Assembly: GCA_963674965.2 (NCBI GenBank)
Contig: CAXXFL010000001.1
Span: 640,001 to 704,000, forward strand
Origin: a bacterium
Lineage (GTDB): Bacteria; RBG-13-61-14; DATKZS01
Direction of reading: 5' to 3'
DNA length: 64,000 nucleotides
A program made the position numbers and the translations under genes. Numbering within the stretch: position 1 is the stretch's first letter; each line of letters begins with the position of its first letter. Positions 482 through 51,641 of the stretch are shown piece by piece. The notes below the pieces were generated by a model. The model worked only from the letters and a program-made list of their open reading frames with translations, was not told the origin of the DNA and ran no database searches.

Positions 482-1606
482 ATGGAACCCAGTCAAACGG
501 TTAAAGAATTGCAAGAAGAAATACAGGGCCTGCGCGAGGAGTACGACAAGCTGCTCGAGGCCAACCAGGTTCTGAACGAAAGGATTATCGAGGTCTATAC
601 GCTTTATAACGTGAGCAGGACCCTTTCCATGTCCCTCCAGTTAAACGAGCTGCTCGATCTCGTTATGAGCCTGATCGGCAAGTCCCTTAACATCAACCGC
701 TTCTCTCTCATGCTCCTGGACGAGCAAACAAGGAAGCTCTCCATAAGGGCCGCACACGGACTGGCGGACGAGATTCTTTTTCACGGCGAGTTCGATCCCG
801 AGGCGGGTCTCTCGGGCAAGGCCTTTTCCAAGGGCGAGCCCGTGATCGTCGAGGACCTGTCAAAGACCAACGATTTTATTTATTTCCAGGGCTCGGGCCT
901 TGACAAGGGAAGCTACCTGGGAGTGCCGCTTAAAAGGCCGGCCGGCACGGTAATAGGCGTGCTTAACGCCCACAAGTCCTCGTCCGGGGCTTTCAAGGAT
1001 TCCGACCTTCGCCTGTTCAAGGCCGTCTCCGAGCACGTGGCCGTGGCCATAGACCACGCCCTCGCCTTCCAGCAGACCCAGGAACTGATGAGCCGGGACG
1101 AACTGACCAACCTTTACAACCGCCGCTACTTCTTCGAGCGCTTCGAGAGGGAAGTTTACAGGGCCGAGCGCTACGGCCGTAGACTCTCGGTACTTATGAT
1201 AGACATCGATCATTTTAAAAATTATAACGATACTTATGGCCACCTGCGGGGCGACCAGGCCCTAAGGCGCATGGCCAGACTCCTCGAGGCCAACCTGAGA
1301 AGAGCGGACATCATCGCCAGGTACGGCGGCGAGGAATTTTTGGTCCTCCTGCCCGAGACCGAGAAAGACGACGCGGTGAAAGTCTGCGAAAAGCTCCGGA
1401 GCGAGGTCGAGAAAATCGATTTTAACGACGACGCCCCCAGGCTTGACAAGGCTGGGATGACCATCACCCTGGGCGTGGCCAGTATGCCCGACGACTCGGA
1501 GGAGGCCATCGAGCTTATCGACCTGGCCGACAAGGCCCTTTATTACGGCAAGGCCCAGGGCAGGAACCGCGTCTGTTGCGAGGTCCCGACCGCCTCGGGG
1601 AAATAG
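482..1606 (+). CDS. GAF-GGDEF diguanylate cyclase with N-terminal coiled coil
   Basis: DELTNLYNRRYF, RxxD I-site (RRAD), RYGGEEF active site; GAF-like region upstream; ATG 482 is better spaced from the RBS than TTG 476. Confidence 0.92.
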   Translation: MEPSQTVKELQEEIQGLREEYDKLLEANQVLNERIIEVYTLYNVSRTLSMSLQLNELLDLVMSLIGKSLNINRFSLMLLDEQTRKLSIRAAHGLADEILFHGEFDPEAGLSGKAFSKGEPVIVEDLSKTNDFIYFQGSGLDKGSYLGVPLKRPAGTVIGVLNAHKSSSGAFKDSDLRLFKAVSEHVAVAIDHALAFQQTQELMSRDELTNLYNRRYFFERFEREVYRAERYGRRLSVLMIDIDHFKNYNDTYGHLRGDQALRRMARLLEANLRRADIIARYGGEEFLVLLPETEKDDAVKVCEKLRSEVEKIDFNDDAPRLDKAGMTITLGVASMPDDSEEAIELIDLADKALYYGKAQGRNRVCCEVPTASGK

Positions 1607-39614: not shown

Positions 39615-42143
39615 CTAGCCCGCTTTGGTCTCCTTCTTCGCGGCCCCTTTTCTCACCAGCGTCAGGGCCAGAATGACGATGAAAAACACCGCCGCGTTGC
39701 CGAAGAAGTCCCTGGCGCTCCAGCTCGATGCGTCGCTCATCATGCAACTGAGGTTAACGCTTCCGCCGGGGGAGTACCTCGAGCCGACCGCGAAAAGGGA
39801 AGCCTTGTCCGTCACGCCCGCCACCAGGTTGCCGTCACCGTCCTTGTTCGTGATGAGCTGGACCCAGTCCTGGGAGTCCTCGTCGTAGCGGTAAACGACC
39901 AGGTTGTCCTCGGCGGCCGTCGTGCCGTCAACAACGCCGTCGTCGTCCTCGTCCTTGTAAGAGATGACGATCGTCCCGTTGACCCCGCCAAGGTCGGTCT
40001 GGCCGTTCGTGAGAAGGACCTTTTTGAACTCCCCGAAATAGCCCGGCGTGGGGGAGGGAAGGTCCGAGTACTTCTCGGCGAGGCCAGCCGTGAGAACCAC
40101 CGCCGCGTCGCCGGAGATGGCCGCGCCGGAAATCTCGATCGAGGCGTACCCGTCGAAATTAAGCTCGGCGAAGACGGTGGAGGAATCCAGGGCGCGGCTC
40201 CCCGCCTGGTTGGCCGTCGAGACCTCGTATTCGTCCATGGAGTTCCGCGCAACGCCGGGCGCCGCCTCGGCCGGGATGAACTCGACCAGGAGGACCAGGT
40301 CATCGAAGTCCCAGTCCGACTGGCCCACGGGAAGGTCCTCGAAGCCGATGGTGTAGGTAAAGGCGTCCTGGCGCGACACGCGGGCGTACATCGAGTCCGA
40401 GTAGTGGTCGTAAACGCCAAGGCCCCAGGACTCGGCGTGGACCCGGATGAAGAAGTTCACCGTCTCGCCCGAGAGCACGGTGGTGGTCACCACCTTGCCC
40501 ACGTGCTTCAAGCTGTTTTTGATAAGGCGCTCCTCGATGGGCTCGGAAATCCAGACCTCGGAGGAGAGGGCGGCCGAGGCCTCGAGCAGGGTGGCCTTGA
40601 TCTTCCACTCGCCGCTGGGGGTGACTATTTGCCGGCAGCCTTCCTGGTCGGAGGGGTCGAGCGGGTCGGCCCCCGAGCAGACCTCCTCCCCGTCGAAAAC
40701 GCAGTCCCCGTCCGTGTCGGGATTAAGCGGGTCGGTGTAATAAATCCCCGTCTCCTCGCCGTCGGTCAGTCCGTCCCTGTCCGTGTCGCCCGTGGCCTCG
40801 AGCCGGCAGATGGACGAGCACCCGTCGCCGTCCGCCGTGTTCCCGTCGTCGCAGTTCTCGCCCCGCCCGATGCGGAAGTCGCCGCAGACGGGGAACTGGT
40901 AGTAGTTGTGGTTGAAGGTGGGAACGAGGCAATTGTCCTCCATAACCGAGCTTAACACGTCCGGCATGCCATCCAGGTTAAGGTCGATGACCAGACCCAT
41001 GCCGGGTTCCTCGTTTCCGGACACCGTGTAATACTTGACGTCCTTGAACCATCCGGCGCCGTCGCCGAGCAGGACCCGCATCTGGCTATAGTAGCGCGAG
41101 CGCACGGTGACGTCCTCGTTGCCGTCGTTATCGAGGTCGCCCTGGTCCATTCTGTAGCCGTAGTGTCCCGTGTCCTCGGCGGTGGAAAGAACGAAGATTC
41201 CGTTCCCCTGGTTTTTATAGGCGCGAACGAGGCTTCCGCCTGAGGTTACCACGTCCTTGTGGCCGTCATGGTCGAGGTCGATCACGCTAATGCCCGAAAT
41301 ATAGCGGTCGGAGTCCAGGGTCTGACTTAAAGAGGGGCCGGCTGACGTTCCGAAGTAGATTTTCAGGGACGGGCTGCCATAGGTTTGTGAGCTCGATCCC
41401 AGGATAAGGTCGTTGTAGCCGTCATTGTTTAAATCCGCAATGGCCGAGACCATGGTGTCTCCACCCGTGCTGATCGAGGAGTCCTGGGTAAAGTTGCCCG
41501 TCCCGTCACCGTGGTAAATCACGAAAACGTGAGTGTAGCGCGTGCCCACCACTATGTCCTCGAAGCCGTCATTATTGACGTCTCCCACTGAAACGGACCA
41601 GGGCCGGTCGCCGGGAATGAAGATATTGGCCAGAGTAAGAGTTCCGTCGCCGTTTCCGAAAAAGATATGCATCTGGTCGGAGTTGGCGTCCACCGTCACT
41701 ATATCGGCGAAATGATCGCCGTTGAGATTGCCCGAGGCCATCCAATACAAGTAACTGCCCATGGTATGCTGGTAGGTTGGGACAAGTACCCCGCCGGCGC
41801 TCATCAGGTAGACGTTAAGGTAAGCCGAAGAAGCCGTGCCCACCACCAGGTCTTCCAGTCCGTCGTTGTTTAGATCGACCGCCAACATTGGCCTTGGTTC
41901 TTGTCCAGAGTAGGTGATAATCGGACCCTCGACGACCATGTCGAAGGATTCCGTGCAGTCACCGGCGCAGCCGTCTCCGGGCAAGAGGTTGCCGTCGTCG
42001 CACTCCTCCCCCGGATCGAGTATGCCGTCGCCGCAAGCGTTGACGCCGCAGGTCGATGCCCTGGCCGAGGGAATCGAGAAGAAAAACACTATCGCCATAA
42101 CCATGGCGATTACCGAGAAAGGAAGAAATCTTTGCATTTTCAT
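39615..42143 (-). CDS. Secreted/surface protein: Myxococcus Cys-rich repeats, FG-GAP propeller, Ca-binding repeats, DUF4114-like motif, C-terminal anchor
   Basis: CGDG..DPGEECDDGN...GDGC twice; DLNNDGxxD repeats; DTDRDGLTDGEE; GFEDL...DWDFDD; Cys-TM-basic C-terminus. Confidence 0.82.
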   Translation of the reverse strand: MKMQRFLPFSVIAMVMAIVFFFSIPSARASTCGVNACGDGILDPGEECDDGNLLPGDGCAGDCTESFDMVVEGPIITYSGQEPRPMLAVDLNNDGLEDLVVGTASSAYLNVYLMSAGGVLVPTYQHTMGSYLYWMASGNLNGDHFADIVTVDANSDQMHIFFGNGDGTLTLANIFIPGDRPWSVSVGDVNNDGFEDIVVGTRYTHVFVIYHGDGTGNFTQDSSISTGGDTMVSAIADLNNDGYNDLILGSSSQTYGSPSLKIYFGTSAGPSLSQTLDSDRYISGISVIDLDHDGHKDVVTSGGSLVRAYKNQGNGIFVLSTAEDTGHYGYRMDQGDLDNDGNEDVTVRSRYYSQMRVLLGDGAGWFKDVKYYTVSGNEEPGMGLVIDLNLDGMPDVLSSVMEDNCLVPTFNHNYYQFPVCGDFRIGRGENCDDGNTADGDGCSSICRLEATGDTDRDGLTDGEETGIYYTDPLNPDTDGDCVFDGEEVCSGADPLDPSDQEGCRQIVTPSGEWKIKATLLEASAALSSEVWISEPIEERLIKNSLKHVGKVVTTTVLSGETVNFFIRVHAESWGLGVYDHYSDSMYARVSRQDAFTYTIGFEDLPVGQSDWDFDDLVLLVEFIPAEAAPGVARNSMDEYEVSTANQAGSRALDSSTVFAELNFDGYASIEISGAAISGDAAVVLTAGLAEKYSDLPSPTPGYFGEFKKVLLTNGQTDLGGVNGTIVISYKDEDDDGVVDGTTAAEDNLVVYRYDEDSQDWVQLITNKDGDGNLVAGVTDKASLFAVGSRYSPGGSVNLSCMMSDASSWSARDFFGNAAVFFIVILALTLVRKGAAKKETKAG

Positions 42144-44819: not shown

Positions 44820-46091
44820 TAAATTTCTCGCGCTATTAAAAATCTTTGGCTCCGCCCTATAGTTGCATTGGACAATTAAAGACCTTGAAATTCAACTAAT
44901 TTAATTACGAATCCTCGGGGGCGGGGGTTACGTCTTATAATTGGGACAATAATGGCAACATGGCGGGGAAGGCGGGCCCCGAGGGGAGTTGGGTTTACGA
45001 GTGGACATGTGATAATAAGATGGAGAGGGCCGAGAAGGACGGCGCCCTCGAGGCGGAGTACGCCTACGATTACAGGGGCGAGCGGATAAGGAAAACGACT
45101 CCGGGGGAGAGCGTGAATTACCTGGTGGACAACAACAACCGCGCGGGATACTCGCAGGTGGCCCGCGAGACGGACGGCTCCGGCGCGGAGCTTGCCGCCT
45201 ACGCCTTCGGCGACGACCTCATCAGCCAGACCCGCGCCGGGGCGGTCTCCTTCTTCCACTACGACGGCCTCGGCTCCACCCGCGCCCTCACCTCCATCGC
45301 CGGAGACGTCACCGACGCCGTCACCTACCTCGCCTTCGGCCAAATCCTCGCCAGGACCGGCACGACCGAATTCTCACATCTCTTCACCGGCGAGGCCTAC
45401 GATTTCAATATAGGGCATTATTATCTGAGGGCGAGGTTGTATGATCCGGTGAACGGGATATTCGCTTCTCTCGATCCTTTCGAAGGCGCCTATTCAATTC
45501 CACAGTCCCTGCAAAAATATCTATACGCTTTTGGCAATTCTGTGAATTTATCAGACCCAAGTGGAAATATGCCAAGCTTAATATCTCTAATCGTTGCTCT
45601 TTCAATAATTACTATACTCGCGACTTCATGTACGGGCACTAACTCGAAAATGTTATCCTCGCTGGGAATTGCATATATTCATGGCCAGAGAAATAGTAAA
45701 GAAGATCTATTAAAAGCTTTACAAGATGATAAAATAAAATATGTTATTTATGTTGGGCACGCGCATCCAGGTGATGCAGCTACTGGTACAGCATGGCTCG
45801 TTATGGGTACTTCAACGCCAGGGGAACGTGTTACACGTGCGGATATAAAAAGTGCATTGTCAAGAAGAACGTCAAAAATAAAAGGGTTTGCCATATTTGC
45901 ATGCGGATGTTATTGGGTAGTAAAACATCTTGAAAATTTTACTGACCCTTCCAACAATTTATTGACATGGCGAGCATATATTCATATTAGCTTTGGAAAA
46001 AAAGGGTCTGGATATTTCAGAGATCAACTTGTTAGTCTAAGCAAGAACGAGCAGCAAGACCCATTCAGAACTGCATCGAATAATTTGATTA

Positions 46092-47086
46092 GAGCACTTA
46101 ACGATTGACATGACGTATTGATTGTGGTATTCTCTTGTCATGGGAATATCATCTTCAGAGATTCGCGAGCGGGCGCTTGCCGCCTATCAGACCGGCGATT
46201 ACACGCAATTGGAGGTCGCCGCCATCTTTCGGGTCAGTACGCGCACCTTTCAACGCTGGCTCAAGCAGTACCGGGAACATGGCTCGACCGAGCCGGGTAA
46301 ACGTGGCCACCGCGCCGCCGTTTATCGCGGCGCCGACCTTAAGCGTTTGGACGGCCTTATTGCTCGCCACCCGGACGCGACTCTTGATGAGTTGCGCGAA
46401 CTCACGGGCAAGTCGTGTTCCCTCATGGCGGTGCAGCGCGCCGTTGCGCGCTTGGGGTACAGCCTAAAAAAAAACGCTTTCGGCCAGCGAACAAAACCGG
46501 CCTGACGTGATCCATTCCCGCCTGGAGTGGAGCGCGGGTCCGATGCTCGGCGATGCTCGGCGGCTGGTATTCATCGACGAGTCTGGCGCCAAGACCAACA
46601 TGACCCGCCACCGCGGGCGGGGCCGCCGGGGCCAGAGAGTCCGTGATCACGCCCCCCATGGTCATTGGCATACCACGACGATGATCGGCTCGATTCGTTT
46701 TGACGGGCAGGTGAGTTGCATGGCGATCGAGGGTTCCGCGAACCGTGAGGTTTTTCGGTCTTACGTCAGGCACATCCTTGGCCCGACCTTGCGGCCGGGC
46801 GACGTGGTGGTCGCCGATAATCTCTCGGTGCACAAGGACGCCCAAAGTCGGGAGATTATCGAGGCCCTCGGCGCCCGCTTGGTGTTCCTGCCTCCGTACA
46901 GTCCCGATTTCAATCCGATCGAAAAGATGTGGAGCAAGGTGAAGAATCATTTACGCTCCGCCAAGGCGCGAACGCATCCTCGATTAATCGCGGCAATAAG
47001 CGAGGCATTATCTTCCATTACGGCCAGCGATGCTAAGGGCTATTTTTTTTCGTGCGGTTATACGACATTACAAACGTGAAGTGCTC
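46092..47086 (+). mobile_element. IS630-family insertion sequence
   Basis: IRs GAGCACTTAACGATTG / GAGCACTTCACGTTTG; TA duplication (46090-46091, 47087-47088). Confidence 0.92.
46140..47079 (+). CDS. IS630 transposase split into two frames at an A9 run
   Basis: HTH ORF (46140-46505) and DDE ORF (FIDESG, DNLSVHK, LPPYSPDFNPIE); A9 at 46466-46474. Confidence 0.85.
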
Positions 47087-47206: not shown

Positions 47207-47791
47207 ATGATGGCGAAGGAAAAGAAAATAAGTTTACTTGATATATACTTTTCATTGAAGTTCATAATAATTATATACGCTATTATAGAAATATTTAAGA
47301 CAATTGCAATATCACTATCATATGCGACATGGCCAAAAGCTTCTAGCCATATAGGTTCATTATTTATTTGGCTACTGGCAAATATGGATTTTTTTACATT
47401 GTTTCCTTTAAATAGGATAGGGGTATTAATATCATTAAAACATCAATTATTTCTATCACTCATAATAATATTTATATTTTATTATCGTTATTATTTATTG
47501 GAATTGGAAGTTGAAATTAAAAAAATAAAGTATAACTCAATGATAATTAATATTTTTTATTTATCAATAATGGTCATTTTTATTATATATTATAACCAGG
47601 GTCTATTTACATACTTTCCTTTTAAAGACAATAGCTTTGGAAGTTATTTGCGAAAATACACTGAGATTATTACAGAAGGAAAGCCTCATTATGATAATAT
47701 TTTCCTTTCAGTATCGCTTATATTATTTACAACAATGGTATCTTCAGCACTCTATTATGTAAATAAAATATTAAAAACTAAAAAGCCGTAA
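47207..47791 (+). CDS. AT-rich multi-pass membrane protein; putative immunity partner
   Basis: AGGAGG RBS; starts about 15 bp after the reconstructed toxin stop; 4-5 hydrophobic segments. Confidence 0.7.
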   Translation: MMAKEKKISLLDIYFSLKFIIIIYAIIEIFKTIAISLSYATWPKASSHIGSLFIWLLANMDFFTLFPLNRIGVLISLKHQLFLSLIIIFIFYYRYYLLELEVEIKKIKYNSMIINIFYLSIMVIFIIYYNQGLFTYFPFKDNSFGSYLRKYTEIITEGKPHYDNIFLSVSLILFTTMVSSALYYVNKILKTKKP

Positions 47792-47879: not shown

Positions 47880-50291
47880 AACGAGTTGGGGAGGAAGGTG
47901 GCCGAGGTGGACCAGGCGGGCGTGAGGACCGAGTTCCTTTACGACGAGGCGGGTAGCCTCATCGGCGTGGACGACGCCGAGGGGGGAGAGACCCGCTATG
48001 TATATGACGCGGGCGGGGACCTGCTCTCGATCGTCGATCCCAACGGGCACGTTACCTCCTTTACTTACGACGAGCTTGGCCGCAAGACCTCGCGGACCCT
48101 GCCCGAGGGCATGGCCGAGACGTGGGAATACCGGGACTGCTGCATGGCCTCGTCCCATACCGACTTCAACGGCCGGACCGTCATTTACGAGTTCGACGAG
48201 ATGAAGCGCGAGACCCTCCGGACCTATCCGGACGGCAAGACCATCGGCCGCCAATACAACGGCCGGGGCCAGCTCGTCCGCGTGATTTATATTGGCTACG
48301 AGTTCGGCGCGGGCGAGCCGTATCGGGACCGCGTCTTCACCTACGACGACGTCACCGGGCAGCTCCTCCGCGACGACAAGGAGGACGGGCAGTATATCGC
48401 CTATAAGTACGATATCGCCGGGGCCCTTATCGAGACGGCCTACTCGGGCGGGCACGTGGTGACCTACGCCCACGACGCGCTCGGCCGCCTCGCGACCGTG
48501 ACCGACGACAACGGAATCACGCAGTATGCCTACGACGCGGTGGGCAACCGAAAGAGCATGGCCTATCCGAACGGGACGCTGGCCACATACGAGTTCGACG
48601 AGTTGAACCGCCTGACCTACCTCGAGAACTCGGGGCCGGGCGGGCTGATATCGAGCTACGAGTACACGCTTGGCCCGGCGGGGAACCGGACGGGGATCAT
48701 CGAGCGCTACCGCGAGCCGAAGGAGGCGGAGGGCGACACGGCCGAGCGGCCGGTGATCGAGGACGAGTGCGCCTACGAGTATGACGACCTGTATCGGCTC
48801 ACCCGCGAGGCGCGGACCTCCCCCGAGCCCGACCGCACCTACTGGATCGAGTATGACTACGACGCCTTCGGGAACCGCCTCGAGATGAACGCGGGCGGCC
48901 TGGTCACTGCCTACGACTACGACGCGAACGACAGGCTCCTCACCGAGTCAGCGGCCTCGGGAGTCACGTCGTACGCGTGGGACGATAACGGCAACATGGC
49001 CGGCAAGACCGGCCCATCGGAAACCTGGGCCTACGAATGGGACCTCGAGAACAAGATGGCCCGCGCCGACAAGGACGCCGCCCTCGCCGCCGCCTACGCC
49101 TACGACTTCCGCGGCGAGCGCATATACAAGCGGACGCCCGACGGCGCCACCCGCTTCCTCATCGACAACAACAACCAGACCGGCTACTCCCAAGCCCTCC
49201 GCGAAACCGACTCGGAGCAAGTTGAAGAAGTGGCTTATACATTTGGAGACGATCTGATCAGTCAGGAAAAGGCCGCGGTCTCGTTCTTCCATTACGACGG
49301 CCTGGGGTCATCACGGGCGCTTTCCTCCAATTCGGGTACTACCACAAACGCGTTCTCCTATCTTGCTTTCGGGTCGGTTTTATCCGCTACCGACCAGACA
49401 ATTACTTCTCATCTTTTCACGGGAGACGCCTATGACTTTAATCTTAGATATTATTATCTAAGAGCCAGGCTTTACGACCCCGTTTCGGGAAGATTTGTAT
49501 CACACGATAAATATGGTGGCAGAGTATTCGAGCCAAAAAGCATACATAAATATATTTATACATATAACAGCCCAGAGAATTACACGGACCCATCAGGATA
49601 TTTTACTATATATGAAATAATGATTGCTATTGCGGTGATAACTATTTTAATTATAAGCGCCGTTTCATTGTTTTTTGGTGGGGAAGATTACGATTGTCCA
49701 TCTGGTCTTTGGGCAGGTGTAGATGCACATGTTGATGCCACGTTTCAATTAGGACCTATGGGGTTGCCTCTTGGAGCGGTTGGCGGTGCCATTATCAGTT
49801 GTGTAGGCATGCGGGCTTATTCAATTCATAAAGAAAGGCCCATATGCCCATTACTCATTGCCTGTGGCAATACTCCTGTAGGAATAGGAGCGGAAATAGG
49901 GATGAATTTAGTTGGTGCTTACATAGTCGGCGCTCATGATATTGATGAATTATCTGGATTATCAGCAAATCTCAGTTTTTCCGCAAGCCCTGGTGTAGCG
50001 GGGCCGGGACCATCCTTAAGCGCTTCCTGGGGCGAAGGCTGTAATGTTGTCATCACGGCGGGGCTTTCAGTTAGCGCGGGTGATATGCTAGCTCTCCAAG
50101 GCTGCTCTGCCTATGTTGATGAGAGGCTATGCAGATGGGAACCTTCATTAATGGGCAAAGCCTATGACAGGATGGCTGATTTCGTTTCATGTGCCACAAG
50201 TTCATGCCTTTTTGATAAGCTTTCATTTTATTCTTCAGGCGGGATGTATAGCCACTGTGACTATCATCCTGATCTTTGTGGTACGCATTAA
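47880..50291 (+). pseudogene. 5'-truncated RHS/YD-repeat protein with an intact Gly/Cys-rich C-terminal tip
   Basis: Begins mid-repeat (ELGRK) with no RBS; many YD repeats; core YYLRARLYDP...PENYTDPSG; GC content drops into the tip. Confidence 0.88.
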
Positions 50292-50307: not shown

Positions 50308-51180
50308 ATGATAAAAAAAATTGCCGCCATTTGCTTTCTATTTCTTTTTGTTATTGGTTGCAAAACAAATATCAACAAGCCCAAAAAGGAGCCAGAGATG
50401 GTTGAAATTCCAGCCGGAGAATACCATGTTGGCGCGTCCTTAATATCAATAATGAAAAATTGCAATGATGGCATGGATAATATATTAAAAATGAAAAGTG
50501 GATACTTAAATAAGCTTGTTTGTCGCCCAGATATATTTAAGATCGATTCTCCCGAAATAAAAGTAGACGCCGAATGTTATTTTATCGATAAGTATGAAGT
50601 TACAAGGAAGCAATATAAAGAATGTATTAGTGATGGTAAATGTGAATTTAATGGTGATAGCACGGAATTAGATTCAGATTTGCCTATGACGAATATCGAT
50701 TGGAAGCAGGCAAATACATATTGCATTTGGAGAGGAGCAAGACTGCCGACTGAGATTGAATGGGAAATTGCAGCAAGAGGGAAGACAAAGACTTTTTATC
50801 CGTGGGGAGATGATTTTTCTTGTGAAAAGGCGAGGTCTATGTATTGCCATGAAGAGATCGAACCAGGAAAAAGGGTTGCCCAAAAAGGTGGCTCCAACGT
50901 TTTTGATGAAAGTGAATTTGGAGTGATGGACATGTCAGGTAACGTGCAGGAATTTACTTCTAATAGATATTGTAAAAGAGATGAAAAAGAGAGAGAATCA
51001 GGATATTTCTGTCAATCATATGGATCTTATGTATCTATTAGAGGCTCATTTTATAACGGATTGCCTCATCAATCACTTGTGAGAAGAAGCATCGTTAAAA
51101 TTAAAAGTAATAATTCATTCACAGGATTCAGATGCGCAAGAAGCTGTGATGAAAAAGATAATGTGAAAAATAAAAATTGA
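50308..51180 (+). CDS. FGE-sulfatase (formylglycine-generating enzyme-like) domain lipoprotein; putative immunity
   Basis: Lipobox VIGC; IDKYEVT, RLPTEIEWEIAARG, YPWG, DMSGNVQE, GFRCAR; about 17 bp after the RHS stop; AT-rich. Confidence 0.85.
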   Translation: MIKKIAAICFLFLFVIGCKTNINKPKKEPEMVEIPAGEYHVGASLISIMKNCNDGMDNILKMKSGYLNKLVCRPDIFKIDSPEIKVDAECYFIDKYEVTRKQYKECISDGKCEFNGDSTELDSDLPMTNIDWKQANTYCIWRGARLPTEIEWEIAARGKTKTFYPWGDDFSCEKARSMYCHEEIEPGKRVAQKGGSNVFDESEFGVMDMSGNVQEFTSNRYCKRDEKERESGYFCQSYGSYVSIRGSFYNGLPHQSLVRRSIVKIKSNNSFTGFRCARSCDEKDNVKNKN

Positions 51181-51260: not shown

Positions 51261-51641
51261 TTAGAGCAAAAACATTAGGGGCTAAGGAATGAAACTGAAA
51301 TCGTATTTATGGCTTTTGATCACTTGCGAGGCGCTAATCTTGCTCCCGATTTTCCCGGGCCTGGCCGAGGAGGACCCGGCGGTTACGGCGGGGGTCGAAT
51401 GGCTTCGGGGCGCGGCGGGTCCGGACGGCGGGTTCGGGGCGGTGGTTGACGCGCGGGGGTCGGGGCTGGCCGCGGCCGCCCTCGGCGCCCATGGGCACGA
51501 CGTCACGGACGCCGTCTCTTCCCTTGCCTCGATTTCGCCCGCCAACGCTGAAAAGGCGTCCTTTCTCCTCCTTGCCGCTCCCGAACCGACAAATGCCGCC
51601 CACCTCCTTTCTCTCCAACTCCCCGACGGCTCCTACGGCTC
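51261..51641 (+). repeat. 381-bp dispersed repeat, inverted relative to 31286-31666
   Basis: Near-identical to the reverse complement of 31286-31666. Confidence 0.93.

Follow-up and report, generated by a model that had tools for sequence, protein, structure and literature searches.

An RHS gene fragment in the 64,000-nucleotide stretch of DNA analysed here (the window) carries, immediately behind its core, a hydrophobic helix that begins at the residue predicted as P1′ for the RHS autoprotease and that resembles the N-terminus of a mature type IV pilin. In a moderately probable explanation, considered as a whole, this helix is a pre-toxin element for membrane insertion that precedes a Cys/Gly-rich toxin, by analogy with SGS1 and Tse5, and it belongs to the tip of an orphan, 5′-truncated, horizontally acquired, low-GC RHS toxin cassette. 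The initial annotation had proposed a pilin mimic. The register between the predicted cut and the pilin-like start stands, whereas F1 and E5 are not supported as a mark of mimicry, because the motif that contains them is common in RHS tips that have no membrane helix and the pilin HMMs remain below threshold. The initial annotation also knew of no described system of this kind, and a literature search indeed found no published description of a pilin-like RHS tip.

Two RHS toxin cassettes in a low-GC island

A low-GC island of the window carries two orphan RHS toxin cassettes, of which one is interrupted by an insertion sequence (Table 1). The fragment with the pilin-like helix (fragment 2) consists largely of YD (RHS) repeats (PF05593, E = 9e-41, 10 stretches; TIGR01643, E = 2.2e-33) and a core that matches TIGR03696 with 49.1 bits (cutoff 32.5) at aa 492–571, the match ending at the G of DPSG. 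It aligns to aa 2154–2830 of a full-length RHS protein of 2900 aa encoded in the same genome (66% identity), and is 89% identical to a 581-aa orphan (C6). The 2900-aa protein belongs to the same subfamily; it lacks PAAR and contains a signal-anchor as well as transglutaminase and Ig domains. Three domains of this paralogue, DUF6531, Big_7 and transglutaminase, are missing from fragment 2, where a Pfam search of the ORF found no N-terminal plug (DUF6531); the fragment also has no secretion domain and no convincing ribosome-binding site. Because fragment 2 is equivalent to aa 2154–2830 and lacks the N-terminal domains, it is an orphan cassette and not a complete RHS gene. Upstream of the ORF the frame is open for 8 codons only, an abrupt switch from AT to GC occurs at ~47880 on the start side of the fragment, and contigs of sequencing run X1 diverge upstream of it at 47881/47890. 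The ORF itself is intact over 801 codons, as is the tip, and the downstream gene lies in the same island. Possibly this genome does not express the cassette at all. A contig of 181 bases from a metatranscriptome library is identical to 49657–49837, which is only a weak hint of expression because DNA carry-over is possible. The stretch is present in two DNA sequencing runs of one sample, and these runs are probably its source; parts of it that lack cover in runs X3 and X4 are not informative.

Table 1. Features of the low-GC island, in window coordinates.
Feature	Position	Strand	Description
Orphan RHS fragment 1	44960..46108	+	382 aa: last part of RHS core and 180-aa tip
Tip 1 hydrophobic helix	45569..45631	+	After DPSG-N, starts MPSLIS; without F1 or E5
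IS630-type transposase, two ORFs	46122..47079	+	Between tip 1 and the next gene
Very AT-rich ORF, polytopic membrane protein	47207..47791	+	194 aa; GC 0.17–0.31
Orphan RHS fragment 2	47886..50291	+	801 aa, TTG start; YD repeats and core (~570 aa) followed by 229-aa tip; 5′-truncated
RHS repeat-associated core (aspartyl autoprotease plug)	49359..49601	+	Ends DPSG-Y; predicted cut between 49601 and 49602
Pilin-like pre-toxin helix	49602..49676	+	F1 to F25: F1, T2, E5, then ~20 hydrophobic residues
Cys- and Gly-rich toxin domain	49677..50288	+	12 Cys; starts C-P-x-G-x-W-x-G; no assigned family
Lipoprotein with FGE-sulfatase (SUMF1-like) domain	50308..51180	+	PF03781, E = 3e-35; lipobox-like V-I-G-C near N-terminus

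The junction in fragment 2 reads PENYTDPSG-Y, followed by FTIYEI and hydrophobic residues up to F25, just as the initial annotation described it, with D at 49587, G at 49596–49598, Y at 49599–49601 and F1 at 49602. The core ends in a P-x4-D-P-x-G-hydrophobic motif (P-ENYT-DPSG-Y), and two Asp residues are invariant across six paralogues (D50 and D77 of alignment A1). We infer that fragment 2 would be cut one residue after the G, so that F1 would occupy the P1′ position of the autoprotease, with F1 and E5 in pilin register. This prediction is based on the experimentally mapped sites in Tse5, Rhs1 and SGS1. Tse5 is cut between L1168 and I1169 with D1164 as the catalytic residue, the CT of Rhs1 starts at A1343 after DPLGL (D1338), and mosquito SGS1 is cut between 2733 and 2734 (D2729).

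The domain behind the helix has no Pfam or NCBIfam match and no usable match in the ESM Atlas. A HMMER search of 1.84 billion representatives returned a single homologue, P0002 (E = 9.4e-20), and this protein is an RHS tip too. The C-P-x-G-x-W-x-G start recurs in the helix-less RHS tips L180 and L186, from two genomes of the same phylum.

The core of fragment 1 gives 54.9 bits with TIGR03696 on aa 123–202, the fragment is 56% identical to aa 2491–2724 of the full-length 2900-aa RHS protein, and its GC content drops from 0.69–0.73 to 0.31–0.40 across the core/tip junction. The related helix that the initial annotation had seen in this second tip is present, and it can be aligned to the five remaining paralogous helices when a one-residue insertion is allowed; with the N_methyl profile only its hydrophobic part is matched (13 bits). 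The transposase behind fragment 1 has HTH_23/HTH_Tnp_IS630 domains on 46122–46505 and DDE_3 (E = 1.6e-36) on 46507–47079. Beyond it lies the AT-rich ORF, for which Pfam and NCBIfam gave no family match and which may be the immunity gene belonging to tip 1, from which the insertion sequence now separates it. The lipoprotein gene behind fragment 2, with a GC content of 0.30–0.43 that rises above 0.65 from 51300, may be an immunity or accessory gene of the same low-GC island. Synteny is not conserved: the gene that follows the homologous tip of L190 encodes a polytopic membrane protein unrelated to both candidates, and the immunity assignment therefore stays a guess. The remaining neighbours are presumably an OPT-like transporter ORF, a response regulator and ClpB.

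Helices and junction motif in other RHS tips

The genome holds 32 RHS cores, and six paralogous cores have a helix at the same place. Three of these six tips read F-T-[LI]-x-E-[LI], so that the pattern goes beyond chance; these residues have been retained although the remainder of the helix diverged, which suggests selection on them. The other 26 cores of the genome lack the motif.

The subfamily to which the window's core belongs comprises 11 tips. All 11 have a helix after the junction, which is clearly TM-like in nine. F1 and E5 occur together in three of the 11; position 5 is K in two (including P0002, the only homologue of the window's toxin domain) and D in one, an acidic residue stands one position earlier in two, and the remaining three have none at position 4 or 5. 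Among the closest relatives, E5 is thus replaced by K5, D5 or S, or the register is shifted. The conservation of F1 and E5 among homologous tips that would be expected of a mimic was thus not found, and this weakens the mimic reading. Behind the helices of the subfamily lie at least four toxin domains that are unrelated to one another, PT-TG+EndoU among them. The hydrophobic helix is a modular pre-toxin element, and the Cys-rich domain in turn is found without it in L180 and L186. Word-index searches with the core, covering near and shorter lengths, returned three proteins of near length and one shorter protein, two of them from this genome. A metagenome scan with the core alignment gave four loci, all from one sample and so not independent, and among the 13 genomes of the phylum in the collection the subfamily core was not found outside this genome.

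A wider distribution was seen for the six residues after the cut. A scan of genome contigs with the pattern P-x4-D-P-x-G-x-F-T-h-x-E-h gave at least 119 loci (at least 123 matches), compared with about 35 matches expected by chance over the whole collection according to our own arithmetic. The matches listed include 73 RHS junctions recognised by regular expression and nine by eye, hence at least 82, from many phyla. A strongly hydrophobic helix (mean Kyte–Doolittle value ≥ 2.2 for residues 6–22) follows in 6 of the 73 junctions among the matches listed, and a mean below 1.0 was obtained for 56 of the 73. At the same loci, E occupies position 5 in 12 of 24 junctions that were not selected on the motif; in a sample of Verrucomicrobiota picked by the core pattern only, E5 is found in 4 of 17 tips. 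In a generic RHS sample the motif did not occur (0 of 122 rows). It goes with cores of the S-[LI]-H-[KR]-Y type, and the window's core shares the S-[LI]-H-K-Y type. With the H-[KR]-Y core pattern, a scan of viral contigs gave no match and 151 cyanobacterial genomes gave a single one, whose tip starts VAAAEY, too few to use. The motif (hydrophobic or F, T or S, L or I, any residue, often E, L or I) is therefore typical of one widespread RHS core lineage.

Some RHS tips elsewhere have nearly canonical pilin starts. The RHS tip of L152 (a Deltaproteobacteria MAG) scores 26 bits with N_methyl, above the cutoff and in the same register, L069 (Verrucomicrobiota) has a near-canonical pilin helix in the same register, and L094 (Verrucomicrobiota) has a pilin-like continuation that is 73% identical in a second RHS tip, P0006. 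L094 and L152(iii) remain pilin-like beyond residue 25. At its C-terminus L094 carries a toxin module that is found in P0007 and P0008 as well, there without the helix.

Known systems and a proposed role for the helix

The best PDB sequence matches to the window's core and helix are the mosquito proteins SGS1 (8fjp) and SGS4 (9on3), Tc-toxin-like RHS/YD shells whose C-termini have predicted TM helices; the matches span the core and merely the first residues of the helix. SGS1 is similar in that its core ends IDPDG-Q and is cut one residue after the G, and its predicted TM helices start right after the cut and are stored inside a shell whose hydrophobic patches hold them. SGS1 and SGS4 differ in being eukaryotic proteins (horizontally acquired) with six predicted TM helices, a Tox-SGS domain and no F1/E5 start, whereas the window has a gene fragment only, with a single helix followed by the Cys/Gly-rich domain. 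Tse5 of Pseudomonas aeruginosa shares the RHS shell and the DPxG autoprotease with its cut one residue after the G, and Tse5-CT is a pore-forming toxin that partitions into membranes once freed and depolarises cells. It differs in being delivered by a T6SS through VgrG. Searches of Pfam, NCBIfam and PDB detected no homology of the window's tip to Tse5-CT or Tox-SGS. Like these membrane-inserting RHS tips, the window sequence has a hydrophobic helix that starts at the predicted P1′ residue.

[quoted passage not shown] The functional logic is the same as that proposed for the window's helix. The prePAAR/TMD helices, however, are the N-terminus of the whole protein, lie outside the shell and need Eag chaperones, whereas the window's helix is the first element of an encapsulated tip. 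In a survey of T6SS Rhs proteins, TM predictors often called the C-terminal cleavage region a TMD.

These comparisons lead us to propose the following scheme as the most likely mechanism. A full-length RHS gene would gain the cassette by recombination. The aspartyl autoprotease would then free the tip from F1 onwards, and the tip would be stored inside the RHS shell. After delivery, the N-terminal helix may enter the cytoplasmic membrane of the target, where it would anchor the Cys/Gly-rich toxin domain or aid its translocation. A role of this kind has been proposed for the TM helices of SGS1 and for Tse5-CT, which is membrane-active. The resemblance to pilins would in that case combine a motif of the RHS lineage with a membrane helix and would not reflect use of the pilus machinery.

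Pilin resemblance, alternative readings and implications

The likeness to type IV pilins and pseudopilins comprises F1, T2, E5, about 20 hydrophobic residues and an HMM alignment that begins at the F. All top sub-threshold HMM matches of the helix are pilin or pseudopilin models in exact register from this position. With N_methyl (PF07963) the helix scores 11.5–11.8 bits (F at profile position 7; cutoff 21.2) and with TIGR02532 12.1–12.2 bits (cutoff 16.3), compared with N_methyl values of 19.5–26.9 bits for 9 of 10 of the genome's own pilins scored likewise without their leaders; the two profiles, which the initial annotation had suggested for scoring RHS tips, thus leave the tip below their cutoffs. 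Paralogous helices gave 15.9 and 17.6 bits with N_methyl, and one paralogue gave no match. A genome-wide search with TIGR02532 (E ≤ 0.1) hit 11 places, among which there is neither an RHS tip nor any place on contig C1, which contains the window. An AF2 model built on a five-sequence alignment has low confidence (mean pLDDT 35.2, pTM 0.29); the same low-confidence model has a helix at residues 3–24. The parts of a T4P/T2SS in the genome include one prepilin peptidase and 11 N_methyl proteins, with the only PF01478 peptidase on a different contig (C2), no pilus gene near the window's tip, and no pilin head domain in any tip in Pfam and NCBIfam searches. The tip also differs from a prepilin in having no short basic leader with G at −1: upstream is the RHS core, with G at −2 and Y at −1. 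Because of this G at −2, and because the “leader” would be the RHS shell, we rejected prepilin peptidase as the enzyme that cuts the junction. A Sec or lipoprotein signal belonging to a separate downstream gene was rejected as well, as the reading frame runs on from the core without an intervening start or stop codon.

Whether the pilin likeness is functional can be weighed on this evidence. Autoproteolysis could yield a pilin-like N-terminus with which the tip docks into, jams or rides a T4P/T2SS platform, in the target or in the producer. The exact registration of F1, T2, E5 and the hydrophobic run with the predicted cut is in line with such mimicry, and so are the weak matches to pilin models only, always from the F, the F-T-[LI]-x-E-[LI] start kept in half of the six paralogues, the T4P/T2SS parts of the genome, and the near-canonical helices of L152, L069 and L094/P0006. 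E5 is nearly invariant in assembling pilins, and its absence from most tips of the subfamily (with K5 in P0002) and from 13 of the 17 Verrucomicrobiota tips argues against the idea. So do the non-membrane helices that follow the motif in most RHS tips bearing it among the matches listed, the low N_methyl score, the G at −2 with neither a leader nor a route to methylation, the lack of a pilin gene on the window's contig at E ≤ 0.1, and the paralogous helix in front of an EndoU nuclease, which requires the cytoplasm rather than a pilus. We consider mimicry very unlikely. Similarly little credence is given to a broader scenario for one RHS lineage, in which the position of the autoprotease would let cleavage expose a class-III-signal-like N-terminus (F1, T2, L3, E5, helix) and so yield pilin-like membrane proteins independently of prepilin peptidase, and the hydrophobic variants (the window's subfamily, L152, L069, L094/P0006) would insert into the inner membrane with the topology of a pilin and engage the T4P/T2SS platform in target cells, which would serve them either as a way in or as the structure attacked.

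It is also conceivable, if quite unlikely, that recombination at F-T-L-x-E-L microhomology brought in the helix, or an ancestor of it, from a pilin or pseudopilin gene and that the helix now acts only as a generic membrane anchor, so that the likeness would reflect homology and no common function. The motif of the RHS lineage is almost identical to the starting hexapeptide of pilins and would thereby offer a recombination site; tips are exchanged at the end of the core, and the lowest GC content (0.32) covers the core end and the helix. Verrucomicrobiota, Lentisphaerota/Victivallales and Brocadiia are rich in prepilin-type proteins, and five of the eight most hydrophobic F-T-h-x-E-h RHS tips among the matches listed come from these groups, the other three being from an Acidobacteriota MAG, a Deltaproteobacteria MAG and another Lentisphaeria MAG. 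The resemblance of L094 and L152(iii) to pilins past residue 25 is consistent with capture as well. A hydrophobic helix of 20–25 residues, however, holds too little signal for proving homology, the window's helix scores below true pilins, in none of the tips was a pilin globular domain detected, and the toxin module of L094 is found without the helix too. An unlikely reading of another kind gives the helix no function in a target: the gene would be a silent relic, or the helix would act in the producer only, for example by packing against hydrophobic patches inside the shell, which would keep the cleaved tip in place, or as part of the P′ substrate of the protease. Residues 1–6, conserved before unrelated toxins, would fit a role as a protease site, the hydrophobic patches of the SGS1 shell would fit retention, and a gene that is 5′-truncated, without plug, secretion domain or convincing ribosome-binding site, and flanked by an insertion sequence may well be a relic. 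Against this stand the intact ORF and tip with a downstream gene in the same island, the helix kept in every tip of the subfamily, and, as a weak hint, the metatranscriptome contig; moreover, orphan RHS cassettes get reactivated by recombination.

RHS tips are usually treated as unrelated toxin sequence from the cut site on. Throughout the lineage of RHS cores considered here, which extends across many phyla, a motif of six residues is kept after the cut, to which a minority of members add a membrane helix resembling that of pilins. [quoted passage not shown] If, instead, the likeness to pilins is functional, it would represent a new route by which toxins exploit the type IV filament machinery.

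Anatomy and predicted cleavage of the tip

The core of the RHS ORF at 47886–50291 ends in P-ENYT-DPSG-Y, and the next residue is the phenylalanine (F1) that opens FTIYEI, with glutamate at position 5 (E5). The coordinates and residues of the initial annotation match this ORF exactly, and the second RHS tip with a related helix that it described is likewise present, lacking both F1 and E5. According to excerpts of the respective papers, the mapped cut lies one residue past the glycine of the last DPxG in Tse5 (between L1168 and I1169, catalytic D1164; PMC10684867), in Rhs1, where the Rhs1-CT begins at A1343 after DPLGL (D1338; PMC8636562), and in SGS1 (2733/2734, D2729; PMC9935623). An alignment of the six paralogous cores of the genome shows two invariant Asp and the final D-x-S-G common to all of them. 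From these mapped cuts and shared residues we infer, with good reason, that F1 is the predicted new N-terminus after autocleavage. A 181-base contig from a metatranscriptome library that belongs to another study (run X4) matches 49657–49837 without a difference, from the last part of the helix into the toxin domain, although DNA carry-over could account for it.

Features of the RHS tips discussed in the text (window coordinates unless a locus is named)
Feature	Position	Strand	Details
RHS fragment 1	44960–46108		382 aa; ends DPSG-N, then related helix without F1 or E5 (tip 1); from sequence
IS630-type transposase, split	46122–47079		HTH ORF and DDE_3 ORF; between orphan tip 1 and AT-rich membrane-protein ORF
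RHS fragment 2	47886–50291	+	801 residues; YD repeats PF05593, E=9e-41
RHS repeat-associated core of fragment 2	aa 492–571	+	TIGR03696, 49.1 bits vs cutoff 32.5
Helix of fragment 2	F1 49602 to F25 49676	+	uncharged and mostly hydrophobic after FTIYEI; from sequence
Toxin domain of fragment 2	49677–50288	+	204 residues, 12 Cys, Gly-rich; opens C-P-S-G-L-W-A-G; from sequence
L094 tip (Verrucomicrobia MAG)	827–1579	-	pilin-like helix and basic segment

An orphan cassette and its relatives

The window gene is an orphan RHS cassette. It has none of the N-terminal parts of a full-length RHS protein, its frame is open for just 8 codons before the TTG, at a sharp AT-to-GC switch, and contigs from a DNA sequencing run depart from the window sequence on the upstream side at exactly 47881/47890. 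The ORF aligns with aa 2154–2830 of a 2900-aa RHS protein on contig 6 (66% identity) and with the 581-aa orphan adjoining that protein (89% identity), in the latter case across the junction into the helix. The 2900-aa protein carries an N-terminal membrane anchor, a transglutaminase core, Ig-like domains, a DUF6531 plug, RHS repeats and a PT-TG and EndoU tip; no PAAR was found in the domain annotation of its full length. GC content is 0.60–0.72 in the repeats of the window ORF, 0.32 in the core end and helix, and 0.43–0.54 in the toxin domain; downstream it is 0.30–0.43 in a lipoprotein gene and back above 0.65 at 51300.

Across its 7 contigs (6.5 Mb) the genome has 32 matches to the RHS core, most of which belong to arrays where short fragments follow full-length genes. 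Two long arrays (C2:79–100 kb and C6:735–750 kb; L002–L021) each combine an RHS protein of ~3300 aa with up to ~9 orphan fragments, and several tips occur in both. In the window, the very AT-rich membrane-protein ORF past the IS630 element may be a former immunity gene of tip 1. The minus strand at 39615–42143 encodes a secreted protein of 842 aa that has a hydrophobic anchor at its C-terminus and contains Cys-rich 'CGDG..DxGEECDDGN' modules, together with repeats that by eye resemble FG-GAP/VCBS.

Copies of the subfamily core are rare: six lie in the genome, one in P0004 from another metagenome, and the others found are on four contigs of a single sediment sample. A helix follows the cut in all 11 subfamily tips and is clearly membrane-like in nine; the helices of the two PT-TG/EndoU tips are broken by Arg. 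The conservation of F1 and E5 looked for in the initial annotation is not borne out by residue counts made by hand: F1 and E5 occur together in 3 of the 11, position 5 is acidic in 4 (the preceding position in 2 more), K5 is found in 2, and the remaining 3 have none of these. The P0004 tip opens WTVIDT (W1, D5). Among 1.84 billion representative proteins the window toxin domain has only one homologue, P0002 (E=9.4e-20, 39% identity). It too is an RHS fragment, with a tip that opens VSLMKL (V1 and one of the two K5).

The domains behind the subfamily helices are mutually unrelated, and in L180 and L186, from two other genomes of the phylum, the same Cys-rich C-P-x-G-x-W domain as in the window tip stands right at the cut without a helix. 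Judged from these comparisons, the helix is thus a separable pre-toxin module. The Cys/Gly-rich tips of this small phylum (window, L180, L186, L189 and L190) share C-(x2)-C-P-x-G-x-W-x-G, and no Pfam or NCBIfam model represents this family.

The opening hexapeptide in RHS proteins

A DNA-level scan of 185,579 species genomes for P-x4-D-P-x-G-x-F-T-h-x-E-h (h, hydrophobic) gave at least 119 loci with at least 123 matches, against ~35 chance matches expected for the whole collection by our own arithmetic. Among the matches listed, 73 were RHS junctions by an upstream-context regular expression and 9 by eye, 2 were genuine prepilins, and the remainder were unrelated families; the RHS matches listed came from cyanobacteria, Verrucomicrobiota, Planctomycetota, Acidobacteriota, Lachnospiraceae and relatives, tubeworm symbionts and others. 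The sequence after the motif is polar or amphipathic in 56 of the 73 RHS junctions listed (mean Kyte–Doolittle <1.0, residues 6–22) and reaches a mean of at least 2.2 over the same residues in six.

The 73 junctions carry the motif by construction of the scan, for which three checks were made. The F-T-h-x-E-h start appeared in none of 122 IMG/VR rows matching a generic RHS junction pattern and in none of the other 26 RHS cores of the genome. E was at position 5, typically as h-T/S-L-x-E-h, in 12 of 24 extra junctions that lay in the loci retrieved by the scan but were not picked on the motif, although as neighbours of scan seeds they are not independent. A core-end-only pattern (H-[KR]-Y-x-Y-x4-P-x4-D-P-x-G) run on 301 Verrucomicrobiota genomes returned 18 junctions in 7 genomes, or 17 distinct tips, with T/S at position 2 in 11, E5 in 4 and F1 with E5 in 2. 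Inspection of five whole genomes shows the motif with S-L-H-[KR]-Y and E-P-E-S-x-N-P-Y-Q-F cores and not with others. Since K-S-I-H-K-Y places the window core in the S-L-H-[KR]-Y type, its F1, T2 and E5 are frequent features of this RHS lineage, membrane helix or not. E5 is frequent there and far from invariant. We speculate that the three residues may be kept because the autoprotease contacts them on the P' side of its substrate, or that E5 may form a pair with the freed N-terminus. An F-T-L-S-E-I tip on an Argonema antarcticum contig (L091, 331–1014, minus strand) carries a Scabin-like ADP-ribosyltransferase domain (PF22596, E=1.3e-15), and the motif thus precedes cytoplasm-acting enzymes too.

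Pilin likeness and likely function

The window peptide of 30–32 residues scores 11.5–11.8 bits with N_methyl (PF07963; cutoff 21.2) and 12.1–12.2 bits with TIGR02532 (cutoff 16.3), aligned in exact register with F on the profile's F position. Tip 1 reaches 13 bits from its hydrophobic part alone, which indicates that most of the pilin-HMM score is generic hydrophobicity. For calibration, the ten real pilins of the genome, each cut to its first 32 residues in the mature form, leader removed, gave 26.9, 26.6, 25.0, 24.9, 24.1, 23.4, 21.6, 21.2, 19.5 and 9.8 bits; RHS helices scored in the same way gave 11.5 (window), 15.9 and 17.6 bits, and a fourth had no match. The profiles thus place the window helix below both cutoffs and below most genome pilins. 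In a genome-wide TIGR02532 search (E ≤0.1), none of the 11 places listed was an RHS tip or lay on the window's contig. Two real prepilin-type genes (C6:465,002–465,768 and C6:473–480 kb) lie ~8–10 kb from the RHS orphan cluster with two of the pilin-like tips, L025 and L026, probably by coincidence.

The initial annotation proposed that autocleavage frees a pilin mimic that joins, jams or hitchhikes on type IV pilus or type II secretion assembly. Its register stands, with F1 at the predicted cut and the in-register HMM alignment, but an action on the pilin machinery is not supported. We regard such mimicry by the window tip as quite improbable: its helix falls short of the 19.5–26.9 bits of nine of the ten genome pilins, the motif is common in RHS tips without a membrane helix, and E5 varies among relatives. 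What speaks for mimicry is that F-T-[LI]-x-E-[LI] persists in three of the six paralogues despite divergence elsewhere in the helix, and that a minority of RHS tips outside the subfamily are strongly pilin-like in the same register. L152, from a Deltaproteobacteria MAG, has three consecutive orphan tips (junctions near nt 1912, 3857 and 5676), each opening with a hydrophobic helix like that of a pilin; one reaches 26 bits with N_methyl, above the cutoff, its frame stopping after 38 residues, and the array includes one tip with Q at position 5 and one with an H-E-x-x-H metalloprotease-like motif. Two Verrucomicrobiota tips, L069 and L094, resemble local pseudopilins. The L094 helix and following basic segment are 73% identical to a second RHS tip, P0006, and the C-terminal module of the pair (~130 aa), which recurs without the helix in P0007 and P0008, thus behaves as a mobile toxin module. 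With these near-canonical tips two candidate readings remain: such tips may have captured a helix from pilin genes at the hexapeptide common to both, or they may put pilin-like properties to actual use.

We consider it rather likely that the window holds an orphan RHS cassette whose tip combines a lineage-typical post-cleavage motif, a modular membrane-insertion helix and an uncharacterised Cys/Gly-rich toxin. The best PDB sequence matches to its core and helix are mosquito SGS4 and SGS1. In SGS1, by the excerpt consulted, predicted TM helices begin at the residue that follows the autocleavage site and are stored, in part folded, within the shell, and their release into a membrane is proposed (PMC9935623); for bacterial Tse5, an excerpt describes a freed tip that inserts into membranes and forms pores (PMC10684867). 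The window tip would work like SGS1 or Tse5 cargo. According to a preprint on T6SS Rhs, the C-terminal cleavage region is frequently labelled a TMD by TM predictors.

The statement that no such system had been described agrees with the full-text literature on Rhs with pilin-like, prepilin or N-terminal methylation (supplements excluded), in which we found no pilin-like RHS tip; alignments or logos in RHS-paper supplements, outside this search, could bear on the motif. The nearest published case is a Bdellovibrio YD-repeat protein, whose proposed pilin-like fold is at the N-terminus, a different arrangement. A lineage-wide motif that grades into near-canonical pilin helices, not found in the full-text literature searched, merits a census.
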